Shown here in pieces: positions 4,492 through 19,582 of a stretch of 19,582 nucleotides of DNA (positions are counted from its first letter, which is position 1; each line of letters starts with the position of its first letter). The notes under the pieces are model-generated. The model did not search any database, was not told where the DNA came from, and was given only the letters and a program-made list of their open reading frames with translations. The DNA is taken from the NCBI GenBank assembly GCA_038851755.1, contig JAWCKR010000022.1, forward strand, positions 1 through 19,582, given 5' to 3'. Made by a program: the position numbers and the translations under genes. The DNA comes from Candidatus Hadarchaeales archaeon. Its GTDB lineage: Archaea; Hadarchaeota; Hadarchaeia; Hadarchaeales; WYZ-LMO6.

Positions 4492-5577
4492 TCAGAGGTC
4501 GCTGCGCAGGAACTTCCCGAGCACCTCGGCCCTGGGGGAGAGCCTGTAGAGCTTGATGTTCTTCCCGCTGTAGACGGTCTCTATCACCCCCTTCTGCAGG
4601 AGGTGCTCCAGGTGGCGGGTGAGGTTCTTGGGGGCGATGTTGATCTTCCTGGCGATCTCCCTGATGGAGGCCACCTCCTTCCTGGCCAGGAACTTCAGGG
4701 CCCGGAACTTCAGTTCCTCCCCGAAGATCTCCTTCACCGTGGCGAAGAGCTCCTCCCTCACCTGAGGGGTTTCGGGGGGTTTGTTGCCCACCTCGGAGAG
4801 GGAGCCGGGGGTGGAGACGAAGCAGCAGCTCTTGTCCCCCTTGGCTATGCACTTCGTCTCCTCCATGATCATCTCCTTACCCAGCAGACCGGAGATCAGG
4901 CCGGAGAGGTAGCCCCTGAAGAACTGGCTCTTGCTCTCCTTTCCCTTCCCCTTGAAGGGGAGGCACTCGAAGAGGTCCTGCATCTCCACCTCCACCGTTT
5001 CACCGTTGAACTTCTTGATGGTGGGGAAGCCCCAGCCCTTCGCTATCCTTTCCGTGAGCACCAGGTCCAGGGCCTGTGCCCCGCTCAGCCCGAGCTGGGA
5101 GACCTTCCTGGCCTTCCTCAGCCCCGCCTTCACCCCCATCCTGAAGAAGGAGAGCTTGTTGTTCTCCACCTGGTTGAAGTTCTGCAGGAGGTCCCCGAAG
5201 GTCTCCACCCTGAGGGTGATGGCCCTCTCCTCCATCACCATCAGGGGGAAGTGCAGCTTGTCCACCAGCAGCCCCTCGGAGGTCCCGGGCTGGGAAAAGA
5301 CCTCCTTCACCCCCTCCACCTTCGCCAGTTCCTTCTCGAACTCCTCAGGCGTGATCTCCGAGTGGGTGAGGTCGGCGAAGAAGGAGAAGTGCCTGAGGGG
5401 GGATCGGGGTTCGGTGGTGAGGTTTCCGGCCACGATCTCCACTCCCTTCTCCTTGGCCCTCCAGGTGATCTCGGCGAGGGTGCTCACGAGGTCTTCGGTT
5501 AAAACTAGGTATTCGACGACCTTCCTGCCGGGCAGATATGCCCCCATGGGCAGATACTTGGGACCCCCCACCTTCAT
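4492..5577 (-). CDS. ACT-like + V4R + C-terminal ArsR-type wHTH regulator
   Basis: N-terminal ACT-like segment ending EKELAKVEGVKEV. V4R signature GWG...FEC...FFRGYLSG...EETKCIAKGDKSCCF. C-terminal HTH SIREIARKINIAPKNLTRHLEHL..KGVI...YRL. The start could alternatively be ATG 5547. Confidence 0.82.
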   Translation of the reverse strand: MKVGGPKYLPMGAYLPGRKVVEYLVLTEDLVSTLAEITWRAKEKGVEIVAGNLTTEPRSPLRHFSFFADLTHSEITPEEFEKELAKVEGVKEVFSQPGTSEGLLVDKLHFPLMVMEERAITLRVETFGDLLQNFNQVENNKLSFFRMGVKAGLRKARKVSQLGLSGAQALDLVLTERIAKGWGFPTIKKFNGETVEVEMQDLFECLPFKGKGKESKSQFFRGYLSGLISGLLGKEMIMEETKCIAKGDKSCCFVSTPGSLSEVGNKPPETPQVREELFATVKEIFGEELKFRALKFLARKEVASIREIARKINIAPKNLTRHLEHLLQKGVIETVYSGKNIKLYRLSPRAEVLGKFLRSDL

Positions 5578-5783: not shown

Positions 5784-6053
5784 ATGAGGGGGAGAAGGAA
5801 CAGACTGGAGATCATCGGGGAGATCCTGGAGCTGGCTTGCCTGGGGGAGATGACGAAGACGGGAATAGCCTACAGGACCAACCTGGGCTTCGGGCTGGCC
5901 CAGAAGTACATCGACGAGCTGGTGGGGAGGGGACTGCTGGAGATGAAGCCCAACGGTGTGGACGGGGAGAGCCCGCGAAGGGTCTACCACACCACGGAGG
6001 AAGGAATGAAGGTGCTGCGGAAGCTCAGGGAGCTCAGGAAGATGTTCTGCTGA
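5784..6053 (+). CDS. Small archaeal winged-helix regulator (HTH_45/COG3432-like)
   Basis: RRNRLEIIGEIL...TKTGIAYRTNL...KYIDELVGRGLL...YHTTEEG. GGTG SD-like sequence upstream. Confidence 0.85.
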   Translation: MRGRRNRLEIIGEILELACLGEMTKTGIAYRTNLGFGLAQKYIDELVGRGLLEMKPNGVDGESPRRVYHTTEEGMKVLRKLRELRKMFC

Positions 6054-6309
6054 GCTCCTCCTGAGACGCCAGCATCCTCTTTCCGAACTCCGTCAACCTG
6101 TACTCCCTCTCCACGAAACCCGTCTCCTCCAGCAGCTTCAGCACAGCCTTTATGCTCTCCCTGGAGGCCTTCGTGAGCTCCGCCAGCTCCGTGAGGGAGT
6201 GGGAGGTCCCGTCGCCCAGGATCCCGAGGATCTCCTCCGCGAGTTCTTCACCCCATTTTCCTCCCAGCCTCCTCTTGATTTCCTCGAAGGAGTCCTCGAG
6301 CCCAGTCAC
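6034..6309 (-). CDS. Small winged-helix DNA-binding protein
   Basis: EILGILGDG..HSLTELAELT..SRESIKAVLKLLEETGFV...YRLTEFG. GTG start about 24 nt downstream of a minus-strand TTTAAG (6333-6338), so probably leaderless. Confidence 0.72.
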   Translation of the reverse strand: MTGLEDSFEEIKRRLGGKWGEELAEEILGILGDGTSHSLTELAELTKASRESIKAVLKLLEETGFVEREYRLTEFGKRMLASQEELSRTSS

Positions 6310-6342: not shown

Positions 6343-6398
6343 GACTGAACTGAGCGCCAGAAAAGGGCGCCAGAACTATTTTCAGTGGACGCCTTTAT
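6343..6398 (+). promoter_or_regulatory. Repeated operator/promoter block, copy 1
   Basis: 6343-6388 matches 11140-11185 at 45/46 nt. Contains GCGCCAGAA twice, terminal inverted ACTGAA/TTCAGT, then CGC-CTTTAT (TATA-like). Confidence 0.7.
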
Positions 6399-6420
6399 CC
6401 CGGGGCTCTGGTCTTCCCTC

Positions 6421-6530
6421 GGTATGGCCGGGAAAACCGGAGAGGCCCGGGGGACTAAAGGGGAGCCCCCGTTAAAGGGAGGTCCCTTCTGGGACCGACC
6501 GATGATAGCCCCGCAAAGGAGGGAAGAAAC
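6421..6530 (+). ncRNA. Candidate structured cis-regulatory 5' leader (riboswitch-like), copy 1
   Basis: 6443-6512 is identical to 11242-11311. Contains the hairpin GGTCCC-TTCT-GGGACC and long-range GGGG/CCCC pairing, and ends just before the SD GGAGG. Confidence 0.5.
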
Positions 6531-7559
6531 ATGAAAGCGAACAGGAAGCTGGCAGCAGCCTTGTCCCTGGCAATGATAATGGCGACCCTGGGAACGATGG
6601 CGCCGGCAGTCGCAGGGGAAGGAAACAACGGATCCAAAACAATCACTACCAGCGTCACAATACCCCCGGGAGGAGGCAACCCTCCCATCGTGAAGTGCAA
6701 GTGGGAGCAGGACCTCACCACGGACCTGGAGGACGGTGACCCCTCGCACCTCACCCCCGGAGGCCAGTTCCTCCCGCCCTGCGTGTACCAGGGTAAGAAG
6801 ACCATCCAGTACTGGGCGGTGGTGACGGACCCGGAGGGTACGGCCACCGTGGAGGGGGTCTACGTGGACGTCTACCACCCCGACAGGAGCTTCAAGTACG
6901 AGGTGATCCTGACCAAGGTGAACAAGGAGTGCGGCATAGCGGCCTTCCAGGCCGCCTACCAGGCCGGTCTGATCACCTTCGCCGATGGCCACGACTACGA
7001 GGAGGTCCTGGACGAGCTCCAGGAGTGCCTGGCCGACGTCTGGATGGGGGTGGCGGACCTGGACTACCACCAGATGGCCGGAGACTACAGAGTGGAGGCC
7101 TACGCCTTTGACCACAGCAACAACCTCTCTGTCCCGCTGGTCAACACGTTCCTGTACGTGCCCTGTGCCTGCTGCGAGTTCGACTTCACCTCGGTCGACT
7201 ACGGCAGCGTGGACGTGTGCACGTTCAAGTGGATAGGTGGGGACAACGTCTTCGGTACCTACGACAAGCCCACCGTCAGGAACATCGGGAACGTGCCCTG
7301 CCAGATCGTGGTGGAGCAGGACGACATGGGCATGGGCCAGGACTACAACGGCAACTGGAACGTGGAGTTCGGGGCCAGGCTGGGCTGGAACGGTGCGTCC
7401 GTGATCTACGACCCATACGATGAGGTCGTGCTGCCTGACGTGCTGCCCAACTGCAACACCCAGAAGCTCGACTTCGGCATCCACGTGAAGAAGGTCCTGC
7501 CCCCCGAGTCTTACGTCGGGACGATGTGGCTCAGCTGCCAGCCGGCGCAGGCGCCCTAG
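6531..7559 (+). CDS. Secreted Cys-rich beta-sandwich protein; putative fibre/surface subunit
   Basis: Sec signal peptide MKANRKLAAALSLAMIMATLGTMAPAVA, strong SD, strongly GC3-biased codons, 11 Cys, acidic composition, Ig-like VRNIGNVP and a terminal YVGTMWL strand. No membrane anchor. Confidence 0.7.
   Translation: MKANRKLAAALSLAMIMATLGTMAPAVAGEGNNGSKTITTSVTIPPGGGNPPIVKCKWEQDLTTDLEDGDPSHLTPGGQFLPPCVYQGKKTIQYWAVVTDPEGTATVEGVYVDVYHPDRSFKYEVILTKVNKECGIAAFQAAYQAGLITFADGHDYEEVLDELQECLADVWMGVADLDYHQMAGDYRVEAYAFDHSNNLSVPLVNTFLYVPCACCEFDFTSVDYGSVDVCTFKWIGGDNVFGTYDKPTVRNIGNVPCQIVVEQDDMGMGQDYNGNWNVEFGARLGWNGASVIYDPYDEVVLPDVLPNCNTQKLDFGIHVKKVLPPESYVGTMWLSCQPAQAP
6668..7531 (+). repeat. 864-bp direct repeat, copy 1
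   Basis: Aligned by eye to 8982-9845 (offset 2314). Only two differences seen: 7330G/9644A and 7396C/9710T. Confidence 0.95.
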
Positions 7560-7587
7560 GCAGAGGGACCAAACATGCAACCGAACA

Positions 7588-7639
7588 CCCAATCCGTACA
7601 CCCGCGCGGGCGTATGGGTTGGGGTACCTTTTTATTTTT
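7588..7639 (+). terminator. Long hairpin plus T-tract terminator/attenuator after the subunit gene
   Basis: CCCAATCCGTACACCCG-CG-CGGGCGTATGGGTTGGG stem with G-U pairs, followed by TTTTTATTTTT. Confidence 0.7.
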
Positions 7640-7679
7640 GCGGTCAAGTGGAAAGATCATCGACGAGAGAACAGTCAGG

Positions 7680-8867
7680 ATGGTAGTTTTCGTTTTGTTG
7701 ACATTTTCGCTTTGTTCCGCATTTCTCCCTCCCGTTTGTGCGGCTAAGCTTGCCCTGGTGCCCAACCAGCTGAAGATAGAGAACGCCATGAGAGGTGGAG
7801 AGTACGAAAGGATAGTTACTGTAATCACCGACGAGAACGCCAGAGTCTTCCTCCGGACCGAGGGCGTGGCGGGAGGATGGATCAGCGTGTACGAGTTTGA
7901 GAATCAGACGGCCCCGGTGGAGGAGGTAATCGCCGACGAGAATGGGAGGAGCGTCCTCTTGATCAGGATTAAAATCCCTTCCGACGCCAGCAACGGCACC
8001 TACACGGCATCCCTCATCGCGGAGGTCATCCTCTCCGGGGCTGAGAACTCGGGGGGAACAGGAGTGGGACTCAGGGCCTCGGTGGGAATCACCCTTGAGG
8101 TCACCGGGACCCAGATTCTGAGTGGGGCGGTGGAGTACATCATGGTCGAAGACACCGAGGTGGGCTATCCCCTAAGGATAGGGGTGAGGTTCCGGAACAC
8201 CGGGAACGTGGTCGCAACACCGGAAATCAGGACCACCATAACCAAGGACGGGTCCCCCTTGGACAATTTTGTCCGCGCCGAGGTTGGTGTGGCTCCTGAG
8301 AAGACCGAGACCATCACGGTGGAGTGGGACACTACGGGAAGGGAAACCGGGAGGTACGAGGCGAGCGTGGAGGTCATGCTGGGAGGGGAGGTGCTGGCGG
8401 CCGAGAATCAAGAGTTCGAGCTGTTGCCTTTCGGGACGCTGAGCAGGAGGGGGGAGCTGGTTGAGCTGGAGTATGATGGTGAGCCTTCGGTGGGCAGTAA
8501 GATAAGAATTCTAGCCACCTTCCTGAACACTGGCGAAATCGATACAAGGGCGAGGTTGGTGGGCGAGGTTCATGTTGACGGCGTCTTCACCGACAACCTC
8601 TCGAGCGATGAGAGGTGGGTGGAGCCCGGAGAAAAAGTCACGCTGAGAGCCTACTTGGGGATTGAAAAGACCGGTCGCTACGTGGTGGAGGGCTGGGTGG
8701 AATACGATGGCAAAGTGACCGAAGTAAAGGAGCTTTCCTTCAAAGTAGGGAGCGAGCCTGGCTCTGTCCTCCCCGTGGTGGTGATGGTGTTCGCAGCATT
8801 GCTGGTGGGGGGTGGACTGGTTGGGGGTAAGACCCTCTTCAGAAAGTTTTCACCGAAGGCTAAGTAG
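7680..8867 (+). CDS. Membrane-anchored multi-Ig-domain protein (DUF916/WxL-interacting or PapD-chaperone-like N-domain plus CARDB-like domains)
   Basis: Signal peptide from ATG 7680. IKIPSDASNGTYTASL..., GTGVGLRASVGITLEVTG, two FxNTG(N/E) Ig motifs, C-terminal TM plus basic tail. The family assignment is a resemblance only. Confidence 0.6.
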   Translation: MVVFVLLTFSLCSAFLPPVCAAKLALVPNQLKIENAMRGGEYERIVTVITDENARVFLRTEGVAGGWISVYEFENQTAPVEEVIADENGRSVLLIRIKIPSDASNGTYTASLIAEVILSGAENSGGTGVGLRASVGITLEVTGTQILSGAVEYIMVEDTEVGYPLRIGVRFRNTGNVVATPEIRTTITKDGSPLDNFVRAEVGVAPEKTETITVEWDTTGRETGRYEASVEVMLGGEVLAAENQEFELLPFGTLSRRGELVELEYDGEPSVGSKIRILATFLNTGEIDTRARLVGEVHVDGVFTDNLSSDERWVEPGEKVTLRAYLGIEKTGRYVVEGWVEYDGKVTEVKELSFKVGSEPGSVLPVVVMVFAALLVGGGLVGGKTLFRKFSPKAK

Positions 8868-11145
8868 CTCCAGGGAACAAGTCTTGGTGCTCTTGGTGTT
8901 GTGGGTCTCTACGACCTTGGTGATGGCATCAGCAGTGGCTGCTGAAGAAATCACAGTGGTTACTTCGGTCTTCATAGCAAAGGGAGGAGGCAACCCTCCC
9001 ATCGTGAAGTGCAAGTGGGAGCAGGACCTCACCACGGACCTGGAGGACGGTGACCCCTCGCACCTCACCCCCGGAGGCCAGTTCCTCCCGCCCTGCGTGT
9101 ACCAGGGTAAGAAGACCATCCAGTACTGGGCGGTGGTGACGGACCCGGAGGGTACGGCCACCGTGGAGGGGGTCTACGTGGACGTCTACCACCCCGACAG
9201 GAGCTTCAAGTACGAGGTGATCCTGACCAAGGTGAACAAGGAGTGCGGCATAGCGGCCTTCCAGGCCGCCTACCAGGCCGGTCTGATCACCTTCGCCGAT
9301 GGCCACGACTACGAGGAGGTCCTGGACGAGCTCCAGGAGTGCCTGGCCGACGTCTGGATGGGGGTGGCGGACCTGGACTACCACCAGATGGCCGGAGACT
9401 ACAGAGTGGAGGCCTACGCCTTTGACCACAGCAACAACCTCTCTGTCCCGCTGGTCAACACGTTCCTGTACGTGCCCTGTGCCTGCTGCGAGTTCGACTT
9501 CACCTCGGTCGACTACGGCAGCGTGGACGTGTGCACGTTCAAGTGGATAGGTGGGGACAACGTCTTCGGTACCTACGACAAGCCCACCGTCAGGAACATC
9601 GGGAACGTGCCCTGCCAGATCGTGGTGGAGCAGGACGACATGGACATGGGCCAGGACTACAACGGCAACTGGAACGTGGAGTTCGGGGCCAGGCTGGGCT
9701 GGAACGGTGTGTCCGTGATCTACGACCCATACGATGAGGTCGTGCTGCCTGACGTGCTGCCCAACTGCAACACCCAGAAGCTCGACTTCGGCATCCACGT
9801 GAAGAAGGTCCTGCCCCCCGAGTCTTACGTCGGGACGATGTGGCTTGGGTGCAGATCTGACTTTGCTGTGAACTCCAGTGGGACCATTTGGATACCCCAC
9901 GAGTGGGAGTGTTTAGAGGTGTGGACGGGGAGTGCCTCAACGGGCGTTTACGGTTTACCCGACATTCCCGGTGCGCCGGTAGGATGGTCCCTGTTGGAGA
10001 TGTGGACTGAGGGCGCCTCTTCCCCGGCTCGTTGGGGGCTCCTGGAACTCTCAGCGGGCCTTCCGGGGGGCTCCGGCTCCAGCGCATCGAGGGAATGGCG
10101 TCTGGTAGATTCATGTGGAGGCGGAGCCCAAGCCACGACTGAGGTCGTTTCTACAGGAGATTCCAAGTCTCCTGGGGTCCAGGGTCTGGGCCTCACGAAC
10201 TGGATGAGCGAACCCACGACCACCCTTACCGTGGAGACCCTTCCCATAAGAGCGGGGGTCTACGTGGACGACCTTTACTGGGGGAGGGCTCCACAGACGA
10301 GGGAGGTGGAGGCAGGCGTTCACACGGTTTTCTTTGGGGATTGTCCTGACTACCTGACTCCCGCACCTCAAACCTCGATTATACCGCAGGGTGAGAGTAG
10401 AACCGTTACTGGAATCTACACGGAGATACCGGAGGAGTTGATTGAAAGCGAATCGTCCCCAGTTCATCTCCCCTCCATAAGAGCTGGCGAGAGCGTGGCC
10501 GTAGAGCTGGAGGGCACGGCTATCACTGAGATAACGATGGGGTTGAGGAGGGGGGTAGAGAACGTGTGGTTGATGGTTCAGCAGCTGACCGACCTGCCCG
10601 CCGGTTGGGTGGTAGGGGCCCCAGGGCTCCCCTATCGGTATCTGAACATAGTGGTTGAGAATCTAATCGATCCATACCTTGACACCGCGCTGATAGTTTT
10701 CAGGGTGGAGAAGTCTTGGGTGGAGGAAGCTGACATAGACCCAGCCACTGTGGTCCTTTGGAGGTGGAATCCTTCCAGCAAGGAGTGGGAATCTTTGTAT
10801 ACCGTGATGATAGGAGAGGACGGCACCCGCTACACCTATCGTGCGGAGTCTTCGGATCTGTCCCTGTTTTCCGTATCGGGGTTACCCGTGAGTCTTACTT
10901 CGCTGACACTGCCGGAGCCTCCGGGGATAATGGTGGTCGCATTGCTGGCAGGGACCTTCGTAATGGCGTTGGCAGTAGTGTCGATTACGGGAAGCTTGGT
11001 CAAGAGGGGGATCATGGCGCACCGTATTCGTGGTGCAAAAGCTTGGAGGGTGAGGTGGTGGGTTCTCGCCTGGATGGCGTACTTCGTGGAGAGAATACGG
11101 ACCGTGGGCGCTTCAATCCTCTCTGGAGACATCTCTCCCGACTGA
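8812..11145 (+). CDS. Membrane-anchored surface protein: copy of the 6531 subunit domain + Trp-repeat linker + PEGA-like + PGF-pre-PGF domain + C-terminal TM
   Basis: Signal peptide ending ASAVAA; 288 aa near-identical to the 6531 protein. TLTVETLP..AGVYVDD..WG.AP....AGVHTV is PEGA-like. YRYLNI...FRVEKSWV...IDPATVVLWRW...WESL...YTYRAESSDLSLFSVSG is PGF-pre-PGF. Start uncertain (8812, 8884 or 8887). Confidence 0.78.
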   Translation: MDWLGVRPSSESFHRRLSSSREQVLVLLVLWVSTTLVMASAVAAEEITVVTSVFIAKGGGNPPIVKCKWEQDLTTDLEDGDPSHLTPGGQFLPPCVYQGKKTIQYWAVVTDPEGTATVEGVYVDVYHPDRSFKYEVILTKVNKECGIAAFQAAYQAGLITFADGHDYEEVLDELQECLADVWMGVADLDYHQMAGDYRVEAYAFDHSNNLSVPLVNTFLYVPCACCEFDFTSVDYGSVDVCTFKWIGGDNVFGTYDKPTVRNIGNVPCQIVVEQDDMDMGQDYNGNWNVEFGARLGWNGVSVIYDPYDEVVLPDVLPNCNTQKLDFGIHVKKVLPPESYVGTMWLGCRSDFAVNSSGTIWIPHEWECLEVWTGSASTGVYGLPDIPGAPVGWSLLEMWTEGASSPARWGLLELSAGLPGGSGSSASREWRLVDSCGGGAQATTEVVSTGDSKSPGVQGLGLTNWMSEPTTTLTVETLPIRAGVYVDDLYWGRAPQTREVEAGVHTVFFGDCPDYLTPAPQTSIIPQGESRTVTGIYTEIPEELIESESSPVHLPSIRAGESVAVELEGTAITEITMGLRRGVENVWLMVQQLTDLPAGWVVGAPGLPYRYLNIVVENLIDPYLDTALIVFRVEKSWVEEADIDPATVVLWRWNPSSKEWESLYTVMIGEDGTRYTYRAESSDLSLFSVSGLPVSLTSLTLPEPPGIMVVALLAGTFVMALAVVSITGSLVKRGIMAHRIRGAKAWRVRWWVLAWMAYFVERIRTVGASILSGDISPD
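8982..9845 (+). repeat. 864-bp direct repeat, copy 2
   Basis: Near-identical to 6668-7531, with two non-synonymous differences (G>D, A>V). Confidence 0.95.
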
Positions 11146-11195
11146 ACTGAGCGCCAGAAAAAGGCGCCAGAACTATTTTCAGTGGTCGCTTTTAC
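11140..11195 (+). promoter_or_regulatory. Repeated operator/promoter block, copy 2
   Basis: 45/46 identity to 6343-6388, then CGC-TTTTAC. Overlaps the stop codon of the upstream gene. Confidence 0.7.
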
Positions 11196-11218
11196 CCCAG
11201 CTTTCAGGCGGGCTTTGA

Positions 11219-11333
11219 GGCCATGGCGGAGGAAACCGAGAAGGCCCGGGGGACTAAAGGGGAGCCCCCGTTAAAGGGAGGTCCCTTCTGGGACCGACCG
11301 ATGATAGCCCCATCAAAAAGGAGGTGAAAGGAG
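11219..11333 (+). ncRNA. Candidate structured cis-regulatory 5' leader (riboswitch-like), copy 2
   Basis: 70 nt identical to copy 1, followed by the SD GGAGGTGA and the ATG at 11334. Confidence 0.5.
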
Positions 11334-11858
11334 ATGAGAACAGCGATGGCCGTGTTTGGAGCACTCATGTTGGCTCTCGCTCTGACCGGTGTGGCTTTCG
11401 CCCACTGGACCGATTCCCTGTACATCAGCGGCACGGTCAACACGGGAACCTTTGGAGCTGAGCTCAGCGTGGGGACGGGTCATGATAGTGAGCCACCCTG
11501 CAAGGATGTCAGCTCTATTTCGGGCACCCTCTCGGAGGACGGAAAGACTATAACAGTGACGGTCACCAACGCCTATCCCTGTATCGACTACTACCTGCCC
11601 ATAGATGTGCACTGCACGGGTACCGTTCCCCTGATCATAGAGAGCATAGTGATAGACAGGGGAACCCTGCCGGAGAACACCACGCTGGAGATTATCCCGG
11701 CGATGATAGATTTCCCCTTAGAAGTGGGTACGCAGTTACACTACTGTGATGCGGCTTACGGGGAGTTGCACGTGCACCTGGACGAGGACGCAGAGGAGAA
11801 CACAAACTACACCTTCAGCGTAACCATCAACGTGGTGCAGTGGAACTACTACGACTGA
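11334..11858 (+). CDS. SipW-cognate signal peptide protein; TasA/CalY-like putative major fibre subunit
   Basis: h-region then GVAFA|HWTDSLYISGTVNTG, the SipW-class pattern A-x-(F/W)-(T/S)-D...G. Also NAYP, GTVP and a terminal VVQWN strand. Confidence 0.8.
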   Translation: MRTAMAVFGALMLALALTGVAFAHWTDSLYISGTVNTGTFGAELSVGTGHDSEPPCKDVSSISGTLSEDGKTITVTVTNAYPCIDYYLPIDVHCTGTVPLIIESIVIDRGTLPENTTLEIIPAMIDFPLEVGTQLHYCDAAYGELHVHLDEDAEENTNYTFSVTINVVQWNYYD

Positions 11859-11890
11859 GGGGTTCTAGGAGATTTGAAGGGGGAGTACAG

Positions 11891-13366
11891 TTGAGGAACA
11901 CAAAGCTAGCCGTACTGCCGATACTGCTGCTGGTAGGGACGCTCCTGACCGGTGTGGCCTTCGCCCACTGGTCGGAGTCCCTCCTGCTCACGGGGAGCGT
12001 GGCCACGGGATTGTTGGACTGGCAGTTCACTGGCGTGGGCCACTTGGACCCAGGCCCACCCGACAGCGTGAGGGACTACCACTGCCGGGACAACTTCGAG
12101 GGGCCTCCTCCCTACTACTGGCAGGGGGACAAGGATGTGGGCTACACCACAGCGGTGATAACGGAGGATCCCCACGTCATCGAGGTGACCTTGAACAATG
12201 TGTACCCCAGCTACTTCAACTCCATAAGTGTGTACGCAAAGAACACGGGGAGCATTCCCTTGATCATAGAGAGGGCCATCATCGATGGGAATGTGGTGAT
12301 GGACTTCGACGAGAAAGTCAGGCTGGACCTCGATGGGGACGGGAAGGATGACTTGGAGATATGGTGGAAGGCCAACATCTTTGGCGTTCAGCTGGAGCCA
12401 GGGGAAGATGGACCTCAGACGAGCTTCTGGGTTCACGTTCTGCAGGATGCGCCTAGGGGTGAGTCCCTGGAGTTCACCATCGAGCTGGTGGCGGTGCAGT
12501 GGAATTACTCCGAGCATCCCCCCGCACCGAAGCCCACCATAGGACTTTCGCCACCAATTCTGACCTTCAGCGCCGTACTCGGTGGACCCAATCCACTGCC
12601 GCAGAACTTTACCGTTTCCAACCTGGGTCCTGCCGGGACCACGCTTAACTGGACGGTCACGGATAATGCAGCCTGGCTTTCGCTCTCCCCGACGAGCGGT
12701 TCCCTGCCAGGAGGGAGTTCCGAGCCTATGGCTGCGAACGTGAGCATCGCTGGGCTGGGAGTAGGGACATACTATGCCACGGTCACGGTTTCGGATCCCA
12801 ACGCCACGAACGATCCGCAGACTGCAACCGTGGTGCTGGTGATCTCTGCACCCAGTGTCATAGCGGATAACTTGGACGTCAATGGCGGGCTCGACACGTC
12901 GGGAGGATACTGGTGTGGAAATAATTGGTGTGCTAACCCACACACCCTGACGCCCTCAGATTTGGAAAGTCTGGAGAACAGCAACAACATTCGGTATCAA
13001 AGCTATGGCGTGTGGAGCGAGGACTATTCCAACAACGAGTACCTCGATTTAGAGTTCGAAAACATCCCCTGCGGGGCCACGGTGAACAGCGCTGTGCTCA
13101 AGTTCGAGTGGCAGAGAACCACGAAGGTGGATAATGCCAGGCTGAGGATATGGAACGGCTCCAGCTGGAGTGCGCACTACTATCTTCCCATGCCAACTCC
13201 CAACAATGACACCACCGTGACGATAGACCTGAAAGGACTCTACGGCATAGACACTTGCTACGAGGTCAACAACTTGAAAATCAGATTCCAGGCTTCAAGC
13301 AGCGACTGGTCCAATGCTTATACCAAGCACGATTGGGTCGAGGTTCAAGTGACCTATACACTGTGA
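11891..13366 (+). CDS. TasA-like domain + BACON/Ig-like domain + C-terminal beta domain; putative minor or tip adhesin subunit
   Basis: TTG 11891 after a GGGGAG SD. GVAFA|HWSESLLLTGSVATG, NVYP, NTGSIP, AVQWN; DLDGDGKDD Ca-loop; WTVTDNAAWLSLSPTSGSL is BACON-like. Confidence 0.75.
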   Translation: MRNTKLAVLPILLLVGTLLTGVAFAHWSESLLLTGSVATGLLDWQFTGVGHLDPGPPDSVRDYHCRDNFEGPPPYYWQGDKDVGYTTAVITEDPHVIEVTLNNVYPSYFNSISVYAKNTGSIPLIIERAIIDGNVVMDFDEKVRLDLDGDGKDDLEIWWKANIFGVQLEPGEDGPQTSFWVHVLQDAPRGESLEFTIELVAVQWNYSEHPPAPKPTIGLSPPILTFSAVLGGPNPLPQNFTVSNLGPAGTTLNWTVTDNAAWLSLSPTSGSLPGGSSEPMAANVSIAGLGVGTYYATVTVSDPNATNDPQTATVVLVISAPSVIADNLDVNGGLDTSGGYWCGNNWCANPHTLTPSDLESLENSNNIRYQSYGVWSEDYSNNEYLDLEFENIPCGATVNSAVLKFEWQRTTKVDNARLRIWNGSSWSAHYYLPMPTPNNDTTVTIDLKGLYGIDTCYEVNNLKIRFQASSSDWSNAYTKHDWVEVQVTYTL

Positions 13367-13379
13367 ACAAACCAAACCA

Positions 13380-13396
13380 TTTTTGTTTTTATTTTT
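13380..13396 (+). terminator. Archaeal oligo-T terminator
   Basis: TTTTTGTTTTTATTTTT about 14 nt after the stop at 13366. Confidence 0.6.
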
Positions 13397-13425
13397 CGTA
13401 AAAACCCGGTCAAAACCGTGATGGA

Positions 13426-15333
13426 ATGAAAGAAGAAGGAAGGGCGGCGGGAAGGAAGGCGGCTTTCGTCCTAGTCCTTACCCTCTTCAACTACTTCTTC
13501 CTGAACCTCTTTCGTCCTGGGGGATGGATGGCCTATCTCCTGCCCTCCCTTTGCTGGGGTTTCCTTGCCCTGGTTGCCCTGAAGCTTTTTGGCTTGAGCA
13601 GGATAAGGTCCTGGTTTAACCCCAAGGTATCCCTAACTGCCGCGTGTGTTTCAATCCTTTATGTGCTGGTCCTACTGAACTTGGGCCTCTTCACGGGATT
13701 CGGGAAGAGTCCCTACTCCTTCGCTCCTTTGCCTCTCCTCACCAATGCGTTACTTGCCTTTTCCACTTTGATGGGCATGGAGTTCTCCCGGGCATACTTG
13801 GTAAAGACGGTGGGCAGGAACAGACCCTTCCTGGTCTTCGGGCTTGTCACCCTCCTGTACGCCCTGTTGGGTATTTCCACCGCCAGACTCTTTCAGCTTG
13901 GAGATCCCCTAGCCGCTACCAAGTTCTTTGGGGTCGGTTTTCTGCCCCTCTTAGCGGAAAGCCTTCTTGTCACCCATCTGGCGCTCTTGGGCGGTCCGGT
14001 GGCCTCCCTGGCCTACCGCGCCCCCCTCACCATCTTCTGGTGGTTCTCCCCCATCCTCCCCCGTCTCTCGTGGGGGATGGAGGCCTTTCTAGGGGTGATG
14101 GTACCGACGGCCGGGTTCTTCTTGATCAACCTCTACACTTCCCCTTTCACCCTGCGGAGGCAGGGTTTAACCCGGGAACCAGGAGGATTCGGCGGGTTCA
14201 GGAAATCCCAAGCCAGAGGTCTGGTGTTAACCTCGGTTCTCTGTGTCCTGATGGTGTGGGTTTCCACGGGGCTCCTGGGCCTCAGGGTGACGACCGTCTT
14301 GAGCGGGAGTATGAGTCCCAGCTTGGAGGTGGGGGATGTGGTGGTGGTGAGGGAGGTTTCCCCCTCATCCGTGGGGCCAGGTGACGTGATTCAGTTCGGG
14401 CGAGAAGGGGAGGCTGTAATCCACAGGGTGGTGGAGGTAAGGCAGGAGGGAGGAAACTGGTTCTTCATCACTAAGGGAGATGCCAATTCTTCCCCAGATC
14501 CCACCCCCGTCTCTTCCTCTCAGCTGATGGGAAAGATGGTCCTGCAGATTCCCAAGGTTGGGTGGATAGTCATCTTCGTGAAGGAGGCTACCTTGAGCCT
14601 GTGGTCGTTCTTGCAGGAGCACTTGGCTGTCTTCCTTTCTTTGCCCATCCTGACGATTTCTTTTCTCCTAGCCCGCAAATACAGGAGGGGGCGGGTGGGA
14701 TGGAGCAGAAGGGTCCCCCCCGAGAGATGGAGTGCTCCCTTTTCCCTCCTCATGCTCTTCCTAGCGGTGGGAGGAATAGCCTACGCCCACTGGAGCGAGC
14801 CTCTCTACGTGTCGGGCACGGTGGAGACGGGAAGCTGGGGGTCAGAGATAGAATGTTACGGGGTCTGGAGCTTCCCGTGCTGGCAGGTGAACTCCTGGCT
14901 TTCGGAGGACAACCGCACCCTCAACCTACGCTACTGTTACACCTATCCCTGCGATACGGTCTTGGTCGTTCTCAAGATTCACAACATGAAAACCGTACCT
15001 GTATTCTTCGAGGGCTTCCGGTACCAGTTCTCCCCTTCCTCCATGGAGGACGGTTTCCACATTTACGAGTGGTTCTTCGGTCCATACGGTGATGGTTGCC
15101 AGCAGGGAGACTGCTGCTGGTGGAAGGACCATCTCTGCGGGGACGGATGCGGAGGTCTTGATGAGAAGACTTGCTGCTGGATGAGTTCTTGCTGTCGCAG
15201 ACCGCCCATCCAGCTCGATCCCTGCCAGAGCCTGATAGCCGTGGTGGAGCTGAAAAGTTGCACTTGGTCCTGCGGTTTCACCCTCTCCATAAGCATAGAG
15301 GATGTATGCTGGGCCTGCCTGGGAAGAGCGTGA
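13426..15333 (+). CDS. sipW: Polytopic membrane domain + SipW/Sec11-type signal peptidase I (S26B) fused to a C-terminal Cys-rich TasA-like substrate
   Basis: VLSGSMSP..VGD, VIHRV (Ser/His dyad), TKGDAN. Downstream and in frame: GGIAYA|HWSEPLYVSGTVETG, then LSEDNRTL, YTYPC, KTVP, IQLDPCQ, which parallel the 11334 protein. Confidence 0.85.
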   Translation: MKEEGRAAGRKAAFVLVLTLFNYFFLNLFRPGGWMAYLLPSLCWGFLALVALKLFGLSRIRSWFNPKVSLTAACVSILYVLVLLNLGLFTGFGKSPYSFAPLPLLTNALLAFSTLMGMEFSRAYLVKTVGRNRPFLVFGLVTLLYALLGISTARLFQLGDPLAATKFFGVGFLPLLAESLLVTHLALLGGPVASLAYRAPLTIFWWFSPILPRLSWGMEAFLGVMVPTAGFFLINLYTSPFTLRRQGLTREPGGFGGFRKSQARGLVLTSVLCVLMVWVSTGLLGLRVTTVLSGSMSPSLEVGDVVVVREVSPSSVGPGDVIQFGREGEAVIHRVVEVRQEGGNWFFITKGDANSSPDPTPVSSSQLMGKMVLQIPKVGWIVIFVKEATLSLWSFLQEHLAVFLSLPILTISFLLARKYRRGRVGWSRRVPPERWSAPFSLLMLFLAVGGIAYAHWSEPLYVSGTVETGSWGSEIECYGVWSFPCWQVNSWLSEDNRTLNLRYCYTYPCDTVLVVLKIHNMKTVPVFFEGFRYQFSPSSMEDGFHIYEWFFGPYGDGCQQGDCCWWKDHLCGDGCGGLDEKTCCWMSSCCRRPPIQLDPCQSLIAVVELKSCTWSCGFTLSISIEDVCWACLGRA

Positions 15334-15373
15334 GGGCATGTACCTATCTATTTAGGAGGAGGAGTGAAGGAGG

Positions 15374-16432
15374 ATGGTGGGGCTAAAGCGTTTCTTGAAG
15401 AGGTTGGGAAAGGGCTCCTTCCTAATCATCTCTTTTTTCCTCTTGCTTGACGCCCTCTTGCTTCTGGGGTACTCCCATTCTAGGCCAGAGACGGAGAACC
15501 GAACCCAGGTCCTTCTCTCTTACCGGCACCGCGGGGAATACGATTACGTGGCGCATTTGAAGCCCAACGAACTCTACGACAACAGGCTGGAACTCTCAGC
15601 CGGGGAGGGAACGGTTTACCTTCCCCTGCTGGAGAACCTCTCCCTCACCTTCCGCTATACCTTCTTCTCCACGGAAAAGGGCACTCTTTCTTCCTCCTAT
15701 CGGGTGGAGGTGGTGCTCTCCACCCAGGCTTGGAGCAAGAGCTATCCCTGGCTGGAAAACTCAGTCCAGGCCCCGGGAAACACCTTAGAGTTTTCCACGG
15801 CTTTGGTTCTCGACCCTTCTTGGGTGGAAGAGAGGATGGAGGCGATAAGCTGGGAAACGGGTACTTCCACCCGCAGCTACGACGTGCAGGTGAGGACATC
15901 GGTCCACACGGTTGCCCAGACGGGGAAGGGCACGGTGGACGAATCCTTCTCACCTCAGCTCACCCTTCACTTCGTGAGGGACCCAGCCAAGGGGGAGTAC
16001 CTCACGGTGGAGGGACTGGAGGAAAGGAAGGAGGGAGCGATTATTCATCCAGAGACTCTTCACCGTGGAGAGATAGGAACCCTCAGGAGGATTTCCTATG
16101 TACTGCTGGCGTTCGCACTGTTGTGCGTTTTTCTCACGGGCTGGGCCTACTTCTCGGCTGAGAAACCAAGGAAGGTGGAGGAGCTGGTGGAGCCCCTCCG
16201 GGAGCTGGTGGTGGAACTCTCGGAGGAGCCGAAGGTCCCGGCAGGGGGGACCACGGTGAGGGTGGGAAGGATGGAGGACCTGGGCAAGATTGCCGAAGGG
16301 CTGATGAAGCCGGTCCTGCACGTGAGGCTCCCCTCACACGATGGTGAAGAGCACCTTTTCTTGGTCCTTGACGGCTCCGTGAGGTACGAGCACCGGGTGA
16401 AGGCGCTGGGGGGCATAGTGGTAAAGAGGTAA
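15374..16432 (+). CDS. DUF5305-like membrane protein
   Basis: N-terminal TM, Y..HRGEYDYVA.LKPNELY, extracellular beta domain, second TM, and a cytoplasmic V..MEDL.KIAE.L.KPVLH...DGSVRY tail. This family is typically found next to S26 peptidases. Confidence 0.65.
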   Translation: MVGLKRFLKRLGKGSFLIISFFLLLDALLLLGYSHSRPETENRTQVLLSYRHRGEYDYVAHLKPNELYDNRLELSAGEGTVYLPLLENLSLTFRYTFFSTEKGTLSSSYRVEVVLSTQAWSKSYPWLENSVQAPGNTLEFSTALVLDPSWVEERMEAISWETGTSTRSYDVQVRTSVHTVAQTGKGTVDESFSPQLTLHFVRDPAKGEYLTVEGLEERKEGAIIHPETLHRGEIGTLRRISYVLLAFALLCVFLTGWAYFSAEKPRKVEELVEPLRELVVELSEEPKVPAGGTTVRVGRMEDLGKIAEGLMKPVLHVRLPSHDGEEHLFLVLDGSVRYEHRVKALGGIVVKR

Positions 16433-16489
16433 CACCTTTTCACTCCTGGCGTCTTTTGTTTCCCAAGAGAACCGTGGTTTACCCATCCC

Positions 16490-16495
16490 TTATAA
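16490..16495 (+). promoter_or_regulatory. TATA box (TTATAA) for a probably leaderless protease gene
   Basis: Lies about 24 nt upstream of ATG 16519, and there is no SD before that ATG. Confidence 0.55.
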
Positions 16496-16518
16496 CACCC
16501 GCCATCAAAAATTATTCG

Positions 16519-17334
16519 ATGAAACTCCTGGCGGGTGTGCTGGCCTTTCTCCTTTTGCTGGCCTTCCCCCTCCCCGTCCTGGCGGCCTCTGGGGAGGAGG
16601 ACCCCCTCCCGCAGGAGTGGGTGGGGAAGCACAAGATCGTGGAACACTTCGGGAAGCTGAGCAGGATGGTCCTCGTCCGCTATGTGGGTGAGAGACTCTC
16701 CGAGCCCTCGGAGGTGGTGGAGATAGGGGACCCGGACAACGATGGGGCCGTGGATGCTTACGCGCTTCTGGGTGTGTGGTGGGATCTCTCCAAGTATCCC
16801 GGCGGGGTTCCCTACACGGTGAACCCCACTGTGGCGGCCAGGTCCTACAGGTTGAAGGAGGGTGAAGTGGTGGGGGCCGTCCAGAGGGCCTTCGAGAACT
16901 GGGACGATGCGGTGGAGAGGGAGCTGTACAACAACAGGGTCACGGTGAACTGGAAGGCCAGCGCCAGCCCCAGGCGTCCGGACTACCGGAACGTGGTTAC
17001 GTGGGGAAGGCTGCAGAAGGGGGTGGTGGCCGTCACCTACCTCTGGTACCTCACGGATACGGGAGAACTCGTGGACGCGGATATAGTGTTTAACTCATAC
17101 TACAGATGGGGGATAGACCCCGACGGCGAGGGCACGGGGTACCAGCTGAGCGGGGCTTTCGACCTCCAGAACATAGCCACCCATGAGACCGGTCACTTCA
17201 CGGGCCTCGACGACCTCTATGACGAGCCCTACTGGGCCATGACCATGTACGGCTATGCGGACTTCGGAGAGACGTGCAAGGTTTCCTTGGAGCCTGGGGA
17301 TGTGGCTGGGGTCAGGGCGATTTACGGGTCCTAG
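16519..17334 (+). CDS. Secreted matrixin-like (metzincin, M10-like) zinc metalloprotease
   Basis: Signal peptide MKLLAGVLAFLLLLAFPLPVLA; AFENWD, DADIVFN, FDLQNIATHETGHFTGLDD, Met-turn TMY, LEPGDVAGVRAIYG. Confidence 0.9.
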   Translation: MKLLAGVLAFLLLLAFPLPVLAASGEEDPLPQEWVGKHKIVEHFGKLSRMVLVRYVGERLSEPSEVVEIGDPDNDGAVDAYALLGVWWDLSKYPGGVPYTVNPTVAARSYRLKEGEVVGAVQRAFENWDDAVERELYNNRVTVNWKASASPRRPDYRNVVTWGRLQKGVVAVTYLWYLTDTGELVDADIVFNSYYRWGIDPDGEGTGYQLSGAFDLQNIATHETGHFTGLDDLYDEPYWAMTMYGYADFGETCKVSLEPGDVAGVRAIYGS

Positions 17335-17401
17335 GTGTGCGGGTAAGAGGCCTGAGGACCGCTGAAGCCGTTGCAATGGTTTCCGAGCACCGAACAATCT
17401 T

Positions 17402-17430
17402 CCAGAACAAACTTCAGTAGTCGCTTTTAC
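17402..17430 (+). promoter_or_regulatory. Degenerate third copy of the operator/promoter block
   Basis: CCAGAACAAACTTCAGTAGTCGCTTTTAC matches 11167-11195 at 25/29 positions. Confidence 0.62.
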
Positions 17431-17494
17431 GTGCCCTCCTGAAACTTCCTCCGAGACGTAGCTTCGAATCGAACTGGGTGGGGGTAGGTCAAGG

Positions 17495-18385
17495 TTGGCC
17501 GGTCTGGGAACCTGGGGGAAACCTTCTGAGAACAGGGAGGCTTGGAAAGAGGAGCTTCTGCTGAGGCTGGAGGGAAGAGCCCCTCCTCCTCCGCCCCCCG
17601 AGGAGGTGCCGACGCCGCCACCACCACCGGAGGAAAAAAGGAGGCTCCAGCGGCTCAGGCAGGTTCCCTCCAGGGCCTGGGCGAAGTTCTTCGGCTTCAA
17701 TGTCTCCCTGTGGATGAGGGTGAACAGGCACAGGCTGATCTTCGACCTCGTGCTTTCCTTCCTCATCCTCCTCCTCGTCCTCTTCTCACGCCTTCCCTCT
17801 TGGTCTCTCTGGCCCCTGGTGGGCTTTCTGGTCTTCCTCATGATCGTTTTCTCCCTTCCCTCCTCTTTCATGCTTGGTTTGCGTTACTCCATCCTGGCCG
17901 TGTTCGTCGTGTTGGTCTTCATAGTCATCGTTCTGGGGGTCTGGTTCCTCGTCTCACCGGCGGTCGTGATGATGGCCATGCCGCCGCCACCCGAACCTCC
18001 CACGGCCGCCGGTGAGTACGGGGTGAAGGTGGGGAAGGTCACCCTCTGGGACTATGACATCGAGGGACCGGTGGAGTACCAGGGGGTGCCCTGTACCCGC
18101 ATCACGGCAAGGAAGGCCAAGATCTCCGGGCAGGAGATGACGGGGGGAGGACTGGGATTGGGAGCCTCCTCCATGGAGGTGGAGAACTTCCAGGCTTACG
18201 TCACCTACATGAGGGGGACAGGCAGCGCCTTCGGCATGCGCGTTCGGTCGGGCTGGAAGGGGGGTAGCTCTCCTCCCTGGACGGTGGGGCTCCTGGGGAA
18301 TCCCACCACCTTCTCGGATGTCACCATGCACATGGTCTCGATGGAGGGAAGGAGGATCACGCTCAAGGGGGTGGAGATGGGTTGA
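17495..18385 (+). CDS. Membrane protein with Pro-rich linkers and an extracellular beta domain (DUF6230/DUF6114-associated-like)
   Basis: Poly-Pro tract, about 3 TM segments, PPPPEPP linker, and a C-terminal ...VENFQAYVTYMRG...FSDVTMHMVSMEGRRITLKGVEMG. TTG start uncertain; family call tentative. Confidence 0.55.
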   Translation: MAGLGTWGKPSENREAWKEELLLRLEGRAPPPPPPEEVPTPPPPPEEKRRLQRLRQVPSRAWAKFFGFNVSLWMRVNRHRLIFDLVLSFLILLLVLFSRLPSWSLWPLVGFLVFLMIVFSLPSSFMLGLRYSILAVFVVLVFIVIVLGVWFLVSPAVVMMAMPPPPEPPTAAGEYGVKVGKVTLWDYDIEGPVEYQGVPCTRITARKAKISGQEMTGGGLGLGASSMEVENFQAYVTYMRGTGSAFGMRVRSGWKGGSSPPWTVGLLGNPTTFSDVTMHMVSMEGRRITLKGVEMG

Positions 18386-19557
18386 GCCTCCGCAGACTCC
18401 TCCCGGTGGTCTTACTCCTTTTCTCCCTCCTGCTGGCGGTCCCCCTCGTGCTGAAGGGGAGGGTGTACGTGATGCAGGGGGGATCCATGGAGCCCTCCAT
18501 CTCCAACGGCGACCTAGTCCTCCTGAAGCCGGCCGGGGAGATACAGGAGGGCGACGTGGTGGTGTACAGGAACATCTGCCACCGGGTGCTCTCCGTGGGA
18601 GAGGAGACCCTCACTACCAAAGGGGACGCCAACCCTGACCCCGATCCCTGGGTGGTGCCCAGGAATGCGGTGGTGGGGAAGGTGGACAGAGTGATTCCCG
18701 GACTGGGTTCCCTCTTCCTCTTTGCCCGTTCTCCCCTTGGTATAGCCCTCTTCGCGGGTCTCTTCTTCCTCCTAGCTTTCACCTGGGCCATGCCAGAGGT
18801 CAAGGTGGGCAGGCCGCGTCTCACCCTCAGGGAGGGGCTCATGGCCCTCCCCTCGGTGGGGCTGGCCGTAGCCTGGTATTTCTCCAGCGGCCTGTTAAGG
18901 CTGCTCTTCTTCACCCTTCTCTGCTTTTCCGTCCCGCTCTTCCTGAACTCCCTTTCCTCCCTCAAACGCCTCAGGGAGAGGTGGCCCTTCTGGGCCATCG
19001 TGCTCGCCTTCCTGGGTGGGGCCTGGATCCTGACTTCCTGCAGGGTGGTGCCTGGCCTGCTCTACCTCCACCATCCGGACCTCTTCTTCACCCCCATCCT
19101 GGCCCTTCTCACCATGGGTCTGGCGGGGGCCATGCTCTGGCTCCGCTCGGACCGACTTACTTCCATCATAGGAGTGGTGCTCATCGTCGTGGGCATCATC
19201 ACCTTCTTCTCCATGCCGATAGGGGAGGTTTTCGCCTCTCTCTTCACCATCGTGGCAGGGGCGCACGCCCTAGCCTGGCAGCCTCCATCCACCCCCGGGA
19301 TGTCTTCCCTGGTGGAGCTCCCCCAGCGCGAGGAGGAGAGGGAGGAGGAAAGGGAGGTCCCGCCCCTGGAAGAGGAGAGTGCTCCCCCCGCTCTGGAGGA
19401 GAGGAGAGGAGGGAGGGGGAGTGGGCTGGAGGAGGTGGTGGGCAGGATTCATTCCCTTTTGCGCTCGTCGTTGGAAAGGAGGGGAGAAGAACCCGCAAGC
19501 ACGGAGAGCGGTCAAGCCCCGATCCACGACGGAGAAAACCCAGAGGTGAAGGAATGA
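18382..19557 (+). CDS. Second S26B signal peptidase I fused to a DUF6114-like membrane domain
   Basis: GGSMEPSISNGD, ICHRV, TKGDANPDPDPW. C-half RERWPFWAIVLAFLGGAWIL...IVAGAHALAWQP resembles DUF6114. TTGA overlap with the previous gene. Confidence 0.8.
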   Translation: MSLRRLLPVVLLLFSLLLAVPLVLKGRVYVMQGGSMEPSISNGDLVLLKPAGEIQEGDVVVYRNICHRVLSVGEETLTTKGDANPDPDPWVVPRNAVVGKVDRVIPGLGSLFLFARSPLGIALFAGLFFLLAFTWAMPEVKVGRPRLTLREGLMALPSVGLAVAWYFSSGLLRLLFFTLLCFSVPLFLNSLSSLKRLRERWPFWAIVLAFLGGAWILTSCRVVPGLLYLHHPDLFFTPILALLTMGLAGAMLWLRSDRLTSIIGVVLIVVGIITFFSMPIGEVFASLFTIVAGAHALAWQPPSTPGMSSLVELPQREEEREEEREVPPLEEESAPPALEERRGGRGSGLEEVVGRIHSLLRSSLERRGEEPASTESGQAPIHDGENPEVKE

Positions 19558-19582
19558 GGAAAGGAGTCTTCTTGGCAGCTTC
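19554..19582 (+). CDS. Start of the next, translationally coupled gene (MRKESSWQL...), truncated by the window end
   Basis: ATGA overlap with the stop at 19557, SD GAGGTGA upstream, and the frame stays open to the window end. Confidence 0.45.

Follow-up and report, generated by a model that had tools for sequence, protein, structure and literature searches.

A likely variable cell-surface island in a Candidatus Hadarchaeales archaeon, with an AbpX-type fibre operon and a riboswitch-like candidate RNA leader

The window analysed here is one whole contig (C22, JAWCKR010000022.1) of 19,582 nucleotides from the genome G000 of a Candidatus Hadarchaeales archaeon (1.25 Mb, 93% complete), and the sequencing runs containing its DNA are hot-spring metagenomes. 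It carries genes for putative surface fibres, signal peptidases (SPases) and other secreted proteins behind three copies of a promoter motif, two of which are followed by a structured RNA leader. We consider it likely that the window contains a variable cell-surface island of three cassettes, each beginning at one copy of the promoter motif; this rating applies to the explanation as a whole, including the gating of translation by the leader described below. The features are listed in window coordinates.

4492–5577, minus strand: divergent ACT/V4R/winged helix-turn-helix protein, MsvR-like, candidate regulator (Pfam V4R 36.8 bits, HTH_24; at the same place in the genomes G002 and G003)
5784–6053, plus strand: H1, Sso10a/HTH_45 winged-helix protein (NF053610 63 bits, cut-off 60)
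6034–6309, minus strand: H2, small winged-helix protein (Pfam HTH matches; conserved in G002)
6343–6398, plus strand: promoter copy 1, short repeated sites and then a B recognition element/TATA-like element (29-nt motif 6370–6398), the TATA-like element being taken from the sequence and the transcription start site not mapped
6424–6512, plus strand: RNA leader copy 1, 5′ hairpin at about 6424–6447 and conserved core 6448–6512 (covariance model R1 68.6 bits, the model stemming partly from copy 2)
6531–7559, plus strand: A, secreted 342-aa subunit with N-terminal donor-strand-like segment, immunoglobulin (Ig)-like domain and cannula/TasA-like C-domain (homologues, AlphaFold2 (AF2) model, fold searches)
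7588–7640, plus strand: strong hairpin with T-tract between A and B (fold of −30.9 kcal/mol over 7560–7650)
7680–8867, plus strand: B, signal peptide, Ig-type domains and C-terminal transmembrane (TM) segment (CARDB 27.4 bits)
8812–11145, plus strand: A′, anchored copy of A with PEGA-like part, PGF-pre-PGF (TIGR04213 76.7 bits, cut-off 28) and C-terminal TM segment, start codon uncertain (profile matches, A/A′ alignment)
11140–11195, plus strand: promoter copy 2 (motif at 11167)
11223–11311, plus strand: RNA leader copy 2, core 11247–11311 (pattern and covariance-model matches)
11334–11858, plus strand: X1, AbpX-family major pilin, A↓HWTD (phmmer and profile to 9sj2)
11891–13366, plus strand: X2, AbpX-like, BACON-like and distal beta domains, putative minor or tip subunit (profile matches)
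13426–15333, plus strand: S1, multi-TM SPase I, internal signal segment and Cys-rich AbpX-like pilin, A↓HWSE at residue 454 (TIGR02228 99 bits, cut-off 51.85)
15374–16432, plus strand: D, DUF5305 SPase accessory protein (PF17231 52 bits, cut-off 29)
16519–17334, plus strand: M, secreted M10-type metalloprotease, HExxHxxGxxD variant (PF00413 33.2 bits, cut-off 24)
17402–17430, plus strand: promoter copy 3, 29-nt motif only, without RNA leader (conserved in G002 and G003)
17495–18385, plus strand: Y, three TM segments and extracellular DUF6230-like domain (atlas lead 0.84; 29–32% identity to the G003 neighbour)
18382–19557, plus strand: S2, SipW-type S26 peptidase fused to a DUF6114-like membrane domain (TIGR02228 71 bits; DUF6114 26.2 bits, below the cut-off of 27.9)
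19554–19582, plus strand: beginning of a further gene that is truncated at the contig end (same N-terminus in G003, where the counterpart is a secreted DUF6230-like protein)

An initial annotation of this DNA had described a co-regulated super-locus for extracellular fibres. All gene parts named there could be found on the plus strand, i.e., two Ser/His S26 peptidases (S295/H333 in S1, S35/H67 in S2), a free and an anchored copy of a Cys-rich subunit (A and A′), the Ig-rich partner B, the DUF5305 protein, the metalloprotease (an M10 matrixin) and a PGF-pre-PGF match, which lies in A′. Two of these parts do not form separate genes. The A↓HW(T/S)(D/E) motif is present three times, in X1, in X2 and, for the third, in the C-terminal domain of the peptidase S1; likewise, the DUF6114-like domain, which stays just under the cut-off, is the tail of the peptidase S2. 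The models TIGR04088, PF12389 and DUF916 gave no match among the window proteins, the presence of TIGR04088 in the library being unchecked.

The middle module (11.3–16.4 kb) is, judged by its sequences, an archaeal AbpX locus with major and minor pilins, a multi-TM SPase I and DUF5305. It belongs to a known kind, because the gene set X1-X2-S1-D matches the published abpX template: section 9 of Sleutel et al. (2026; 10.64898/2026.01.04.697558) describes such clusters of archaea as containing tip proteins and minor subunits besides DUF5305 and an SPase I with ten TM helices. Novelty of the core is not supported in view of that description, which already comprises major, minor and tip subunits, the ten-TM SPase I and DUF5305. 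The pilin X1 matches AbpX of Pyrodictium abyssi (PDB 9sj2) in a phmmer search (E 1.7e-4), and the profile A3 does so at E 2e-17. The donor strands HWTD and HWSE follow the AbpX rule of an aromatic residue 2 and an acidic residue 4, and Asp and Glu make up 15.2% of X1 and 12.0% of X2 (about 15% in the AbpX clade). The locus resembles archaeal abpX loci (9sj2/9rhp; 10.64898/2026.01.04.697558, as far as these are treated in its main part) in homology, W-x-D/E donor strand, acidity, minor or tip subunit, multi-TM SPase I, DUF5305 and a nearby transcription factor; unlike here, the main text of that work makes no mention of Hadarchaeota, Bathyarchaeia or a riboswitch, and its supplements may differ. 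The named proteins nearest to X1 (81–84% identity) and S1 (74%) are from Candidatus Hadarchaeales.

The tapA-sipW-tasA system of Bacillus shares the donor-strand fibre logic of the TasA superfamily and the dedicated SPase, and abpA/abpB of Pyrobaculum share the fibre logic (PMC9245690, in the parts available). In contrast to these systems, neither TapA nor AbpB could be recognized in the window, and according to the same parts Pyrobaculum has no dedicated peptidase. Membership in the Bacillus TasA/SipW group was not found, as no PF12389 match occurs and the SipW equivalog NF046067 reaches 77.1 and 40.8 bits versus 190.

S1 has ten hydrophobic segments in a crude hydropathy scan, one of which is an internal signal; at the C-terminus, this second signal-like segment is followed by the AbpX-type donor strand. 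Among the best 120 matches (S1 included), the C-terminal segment is present in all 46 proteins of at least 480 aa and in none of the 74 shorter ones. The distal domains of these fusions vary (e.g., CBM96 in L017). The S1 peptidase may produce its own tip or anchor subunit. A fusion of SPase and pilin was not found in the literature, where the abpX passages show only an SPase-DUF5305 fusion and the supplements could list others. By homology, X1 would be exported, cleaved at A↓HWTD by S1 with the assistance of DUF5305, and polymerised by N-terminal donor-strand complementation, probably with the help of Ca2+. X2 would serve as minor or tip subunit, and the pilin domain of S1 would be either released or retained as an anchor. 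In the protease M downstream, Asp replaces the third zinc-binding His, and its gene is kept where the fibre genes are deleted.

When up to nine mismatches are allowed, the 1.25-Mb genome contains the 29-nt promoter motif at three sites only (6370, 11167, and 17402), as had been noticed initially for three starts, except that a conserved RNA leader had then been counted as part of the promoter. About 170 nt are common to the upstream regions 1 and 2, with an identity of 85%, and copy 3 shares the 29-nt part only. In Hadarchaeales promoters of other loci (L038-L040, L055-L057, L125), two to three short tandem repeats are located upstream of the TATA-like element and are likely an activator site. 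Homologues of H1 adjoin fibre genes in L018 and L024, and a winged-helix factor, probably H1, may act on the repeated promoter sites.

In both major subunit genes, A and X1, a leader of about 65 nt (6448–6512 and 11247–11311) separates the promoter from the ribosome-binding site, and its core is 76–87% conserved in another family of the order. Its exact pattern is present in 8 of the 66 Hadarchaeota genomes of the comparison set, and these are identical to the eight with AbpX-like genes. BLAST found the leader region in 9 of 61 genomes, including G003, which matches in the promoter half only. In a metagenome scan with the 3′ two-thirds of the leader as query, at least 122 loci were detected, and 72 of the 122 listed also carry the 5′ part that was not queried. 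The 50 listed loci without the 5′ half were excluded; of those examined, all but L129 resemble chance matches, L129 being a genuine copy truncated where its contig stops. The leader-bearing contigs are linked to names of Bathyarchaeota, ‘Nitrososphaeria’ and Methanomethylicia, so that the range within Thermoproteota rests on protein names.

Behind 68 distinct leader copies, 45 AbpX-like, 12 trypsin-like, two TasA-like (PF12389), two vWA genes, one A gene and one other gene could be identified, with no clear open reading frame (ORF) in five cases. All 63 clear ORFs begin with an N-terminal hydrophobic, signal-like stretch, and the Shine-Dalgarno (SD) sequence is mostly located 10–17 nt downstream of the leader. 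In L049, L051, L063, L089, and L115, the leader is directly followed by secreted S1 proteases of trypsin-like type, which belong to uncultured organisms from sediments. In the Hadarchaeales locus L018 (G030:C35, 3844–8073), two TasA-like genes (PF12389) are found together with HTH_45, an anchored AbpX-like gene and an S26 peptidase, and the second of its leader copies is degenerate. Tandem promoter-leader copies, some without ORF, in L044, L056/L057, L037, and L110 suggest frequent duplication and decay. The leader was not found in 12 GTDB loci of the A family or three of their genomes, in 151 Dehalococcoidia genomes (class of G067), in 401 genomes each of the phyla of G066 and G068, or in the viral contigs and plasmids searched; these were samples scanned mostly with exact patterns, which divergent versions may escape.

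A contig from an RNA library of an independent study covers 6460–6810, from the leader interior into A, without mismatch. This fits a 5′ untranslated region (UTR) and does not by itself prove transcription. The RNA run X7 consists of contigs only, which may contain DNA; 9 of 30 bins are covered, and uncovered bins are uninformative on expression.

RNAalifold predicts an 8-bp bulged stem and, after it, another arm made up of an internal loop and a hairpin whose length varies; to this, a pseudoknot between the loop and the 3′ end and an optional 5′ H-type pseudoknot were added. In the alignment A5, 92.8% of the cells pair and both partners vary in 12 of the 27 pairs, which is reached by none of 500 shuffles, while slid controls give 40–50%. 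The covariation is strong for the 5′ pseudoknot and thin for the near-invariant core. From its position in the 5′ UTR, the coherent gene set and the structure with covariation, the leader is regarded as a riboswitch-like candidate. It would act in cis on the genes for the major subunits in cassettes 1 and 2 and most likely gates translation, with its 3′ C-run pairing either with the G-run of the loop, leaving the SD free, or with the SD, blocking it. The latter pairing is possible in the window copies at −4.9 and −4.6 kcal/mol. A ligand or protein would operate the switch.

Several points weigh against this reading of the leader. Ten of the twelve covarying pairs sit in the optional 5′ pseudoknot, which is found in 50 of 66 leader copies and is replaced by a mere hairpin in this genome. 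In the core stems, one compensatory pair occurs in two sequences and one in a single sequence, plus G-U/G-C changes; the invariance of the core is partly produced by the search pattern and filter, and the shuffle control overstates the support, as the leader sequences are related. Single-sequence folding is ordinary (z between −1.0 and −1.9 in the window copies and +0.06 in G002). Furthermore, the anti-SD hairpin is weak (median −1.7 kcal/mol; −2 or lower in 31 of 68 copies), and no diguanylate (GGDEF), diadenylate (DAC) or CYTH cyclase could be detected in the 93% complete genome.

The last two points also favour a constitutive element, i.e., a pseudoknot that blocks exonucleases or enhances translation, or a site bound by a general protein such as L7Ae, stabilising the mRNAs of abundant secreted proteins without switching. 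Such a role, for which we see a tentative case, is nearly as likely as switching. It would suit the position of the leader before major subunits and secreted proteases, and the 3′ internal loop presumably resembles a kink-turn strand. On the other hand, the unpaired leader bases are near-invariant across hot-spring and sediment lineages (partly by construction), the spacing to the SD is narrow in most copies, and the leader is missing together with the AbpX fibre genes in G003.

Coming back to a switching leader, it lies in the 5′ UTR and has a stem, an A-rich linker, a variable hairpin and, at the 3′ side, a strand pairing back to the loop, an arrangement that we take to be shared by c-di-GMP-I and fluoride riboswitches and the fold of the pistol ribozyme. 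In bacteria, regulons of cyclic di-guanosine monophosphate (c-di-GMP) comprise pili, adhesins and secreted proteases and so resemble the gene set behind the leader. Unlike in these cases, there is no GGDEF gene in the genome and no pistol-like cleavage arm after the leader core. Rfam scans gave matches at chance level only and no family. No description of the motif was found in the literature, with the COMPASS supplements and 1.52 million database motifs as places that could still hold it; the main text of the COMPASS preprint (10.64898/2026.10.21.760802) mentions neither TasA, AbpX, Bathyarchaeia nor Hadarchaeota. Few riboswitch classes are known from archaea, mainly thiamine pyrophosphate and fluoride, according to the available parts of McCown (2017; PMC5473149). 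It is conceivable, and put forward here with reserve, that the leader is a new archaea-specific class sensing an ion or a non-canonical nucleotide messenger, an on-switch that Hadarchaeota, Bathyarchaeia, and Methanomethylicia would use for secreted proteases and the fibres of the biofilm matrix, comparable to the c-di-GMP riboswitches of bacteria, and which was duplicated here onto a second, two-domain family of donor-strand fibres.

This second family is represented by A, for which 201 homologues and no Pfam match could be found. Named homologues are from Bathyarchaeia, Dehalococcoidia, and Methanomicrobiales, and the family also occurs in Thermoplasmatota. In 12 GTDB loci, B follows the A gene in nine and two or more copies of A are present in eight. 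The AF2 model of A is a confident two-domain monomer (pLDDT 96, predicted local distance difference test) that leaves residues 1–24 unpaired, in keeping with the donor-strand complementation considered initially. This segment alternates as T-x-V-x-V/I and continues with glycines, and T12, V14, V/I16, and G19 are found in 92–99 of 100 homologues. A strand of this kind at the N-terminus, conserved, amphipathic and left free by the monomer, is a criterion of the TasA superfamily. The N-domain is a generic Ig fold. For the C-domain, the best fold match is the cannula protein Hyper2 (Z 8.1, root-mean-square deviation 3.3, 115 of 133 residues aligned), followed by CanX (7.0), AbpA (6.4), thread (5.9), and TasA (5.8).

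The resemblance of the C-domain to protomers of cannulae and the TasA superfamily is suggestive, not decisive. Unrelated ASH/PapD domains reach Z 7.3 on it, less than one Z unit behind Hyper2, Foldseek returned nothing at E ≤ 0.001 with it (best E 0.015), and no sequence link between A and AbpX exists beyond the signal region. The subunit initially called ‘unrelated’ thus remains so by sequence, while its C-domain model lies closest, by a small margin, to these protomers. PDB sequence and profile searches gave nothing meaningful for A, nor for the B profile, and whole-chain fold searches of A were swamped by generic Ig matches. The complex prediction of an A trimer scored 0.04 and 0.01 (mark 0.42), which is evidence neither way. 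Compared with the cannula proteins CanA, CanX, and Hyper2 (10.1101/2024.12.30.630787, available parts), the C-domain aligns over 114–115 of 133 residues at Z 7.0–8.1; in contrast, the identity is 4–7%, and A has an extra Ig domain between putative donor strand and acceptor, the partner B and anchored copies.

In four of 120 A homologues, e.g., in L023, an AbpX domain replaces the N-terminal strand, as expected for an adapter joining two donor-strand fibres. Such AbpX-A fusion proteins are encoded in L023 (6538–8103) and represented by P0003, P0006, P0113, and P0119; one is from Dehalococcoidia, where the leader was not found. We conclude that A probably polymerises by donor-strand exchange and would form a second donor-strand fibre, in which each subunit inserts its T-x-V-x-I strand into the C-domain of its neighbour. 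A′ may then serve as the base anchored in the membrane, with B as a likewise anchored partner in assembly, and the hairpin with T-tract after A likely acts as a stoichiometry terminator keeping B and A′ scarce relative to A.

Alternatively, A, A′, and B could be two-domain adhesins or proteins associated with the S-layer that do not polymerise, similar to WxL/WxLIP. Those surface clusters presumably likewise combine a small secreted subunit, a membrane-anchored Ig partner and a larger anchored copy. A complete and confident monomer with a generic Ig N-domain would fit adhesins; the closest named atlas cluster is WxL, at 0.75 only, and B has a weak match to WxLIP_HBD (E 0.037; 14.4 bits versus 28.9). 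However, there is no match in the window to PF13731, as expected of the subunit, or to DUF916, as expected along with DUF3324 of the partner, the conserved alternating strand of A stays unpaired, and free, anchored and adapter versions exist besides the paralogues in 8 of the 12 GTDB loci, which makes adhesins rather unlikely in our view.

A disulfide-crosslinked matrix, as assumed initially, is without support: the cysteines of A are variable (1–16 per protein), and each site is occupied in 2–68 of 100 homologues. C56 and C186 occur together in 33 homologues, singly in six and not at all in 61, a distribution as well explained by an intrachain bond.

The repeat shared by A and A′ (6668–7531 and 8982–9845) comprises 864 bp with two differences (99.8% identity). 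In run X1, a metagenome that is possibly the source sample of the window, the 864-bp unitig has a depth of 22.6 versus 10–12.5 in the flanks, and a misassembly was rejected due to this approximate doubling. Run X4, which stems from another study, has this 864-bp repeat as a single collapsed unitig with 49 differences from the window. This hints at gene conversion or concerted evolution keeping A and A′ alike within a strain, an effect that bubble-merging by the assembler could mimic. The A-B family was not found described in the literature; the abpX and COMPASS supplements could contain it.

Cassette 3 (Y and S2) would be an independent surface module that runs past the contig end, as secreted DUF6230-like genes are found in G003; there, the counterpart of the contig-end gene matches DUF6230 at E 5.7e-5, below the cut-off. 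The peptidase S2 is kept in G003, whereas its counterpart in G002 lacks the S26 domain. A gene set of DUF6114 and DUF6230-like genes with variable content is present in the Hadarchaeales loci L015 (4319–7162) and L200 (8669–12081); elsewhere, it is mostly actinobacterial in the atlas. DUF6114 occurs in no paper found, and DUF6230 in one unrelated paper.

The cassettes could be seen to come and go separately. The A family is present in 1 of the 66 Hadarchaeota genomes. G002 has the AbpX locus without A-B-A′, with a single promoter-leader directly before X1. Therefore, the 4797-bp cassette between the repeats was either gained here or lost in G002, and a gain is favoured because the cassette is rare; most likely it was acquired laterally and set behind a duplicated promoter and leader. 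In G003, X1, X2, and S1 are absent as well as the leader, and the promoter runs straight into a DUF5305 remnant, with M and Y kept. In run X4, the contig depth is about 3000 up to 6404, 35–55 over A to D, 2300–2900 over M and about 300 over Y-S2, these depths being sums over strains and not copy numbers. The shifts at 6404 (about 60-fold) and near 17430 (about tenfold) are accompanied by loose ends adjoining the promoter motifs. The leftmost 4.5 kb of the window contain housekeeping genes (recombinase, deacetylase, Hjc, Hef, TIM). The tyrosine recombinase at 2–1051, with a C-terminal zinc ribbon, is cut by the contig start, and a glycosyltransferase takes its place in G002.

Judged against this patchwork, the initial proposal of a single conserved multi-filament regulon under common control, with a pair of dedicated peptidases and a disulfide-crosslinked matrix, is improbable, even though the three promoter motifs are unique to the locus, A and X1 share the same leader, and AbpX-A fusions in other genomes indicate that both fibre types can be linked. 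The synteny survey revealed three separately segregating cassettes, and the three-cassette form exists in 1 of 66 genomes; in addition, the S26 part of S2 is dispensed with in G002, the Cys positions are unconserved, and the window has no AbpX-A adapter gene. What stands of the fibre reading are the TasA-superfamily genes, the dedicated SPase and the common promoter, not the novelty of the core, the conserved super-locus or the cross-linking. A DNA site for recombination or cassette capture (attC-like) in place of an RNA is very improbable: although copies flank an inserted cassette, a tyrosine recombinase is encoded at 2–1051, duplicate or degenerate copies occur in G055, G030, L044, and L056/L057, and population breakpoints lie at the promoter motifs, the element is always located 5′ of an SD and a secreted gene, shows loops of variable length and pseudoknot covariation in place of a palindrome and has the breakpoints in the promoter part and not in the leader core, and homologous recombination between the 170-bp repeats suffices.

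In summary, the core fibre operon is already known as a type, and no description of the RNA leader, the A-B family or the fusion of SPase and pilin was found in the available parts of the literature. To fix the stoichiometry of a tip or anchor by fusing a peptidase with its own substrate would be unusual. With the A family, the donor-strand fibres, which are of interest as thermostable biomaterials, would gain a two-domain branch that includes AbpX adapters. How archaea decide to build a biofilm is largely open, and the leader, an RNA of 65 nt that is linked to matrix genes in three groups of uncultured archaea and can be produced in vitro, makes the question of an archaeal biofilm signal directly testable.

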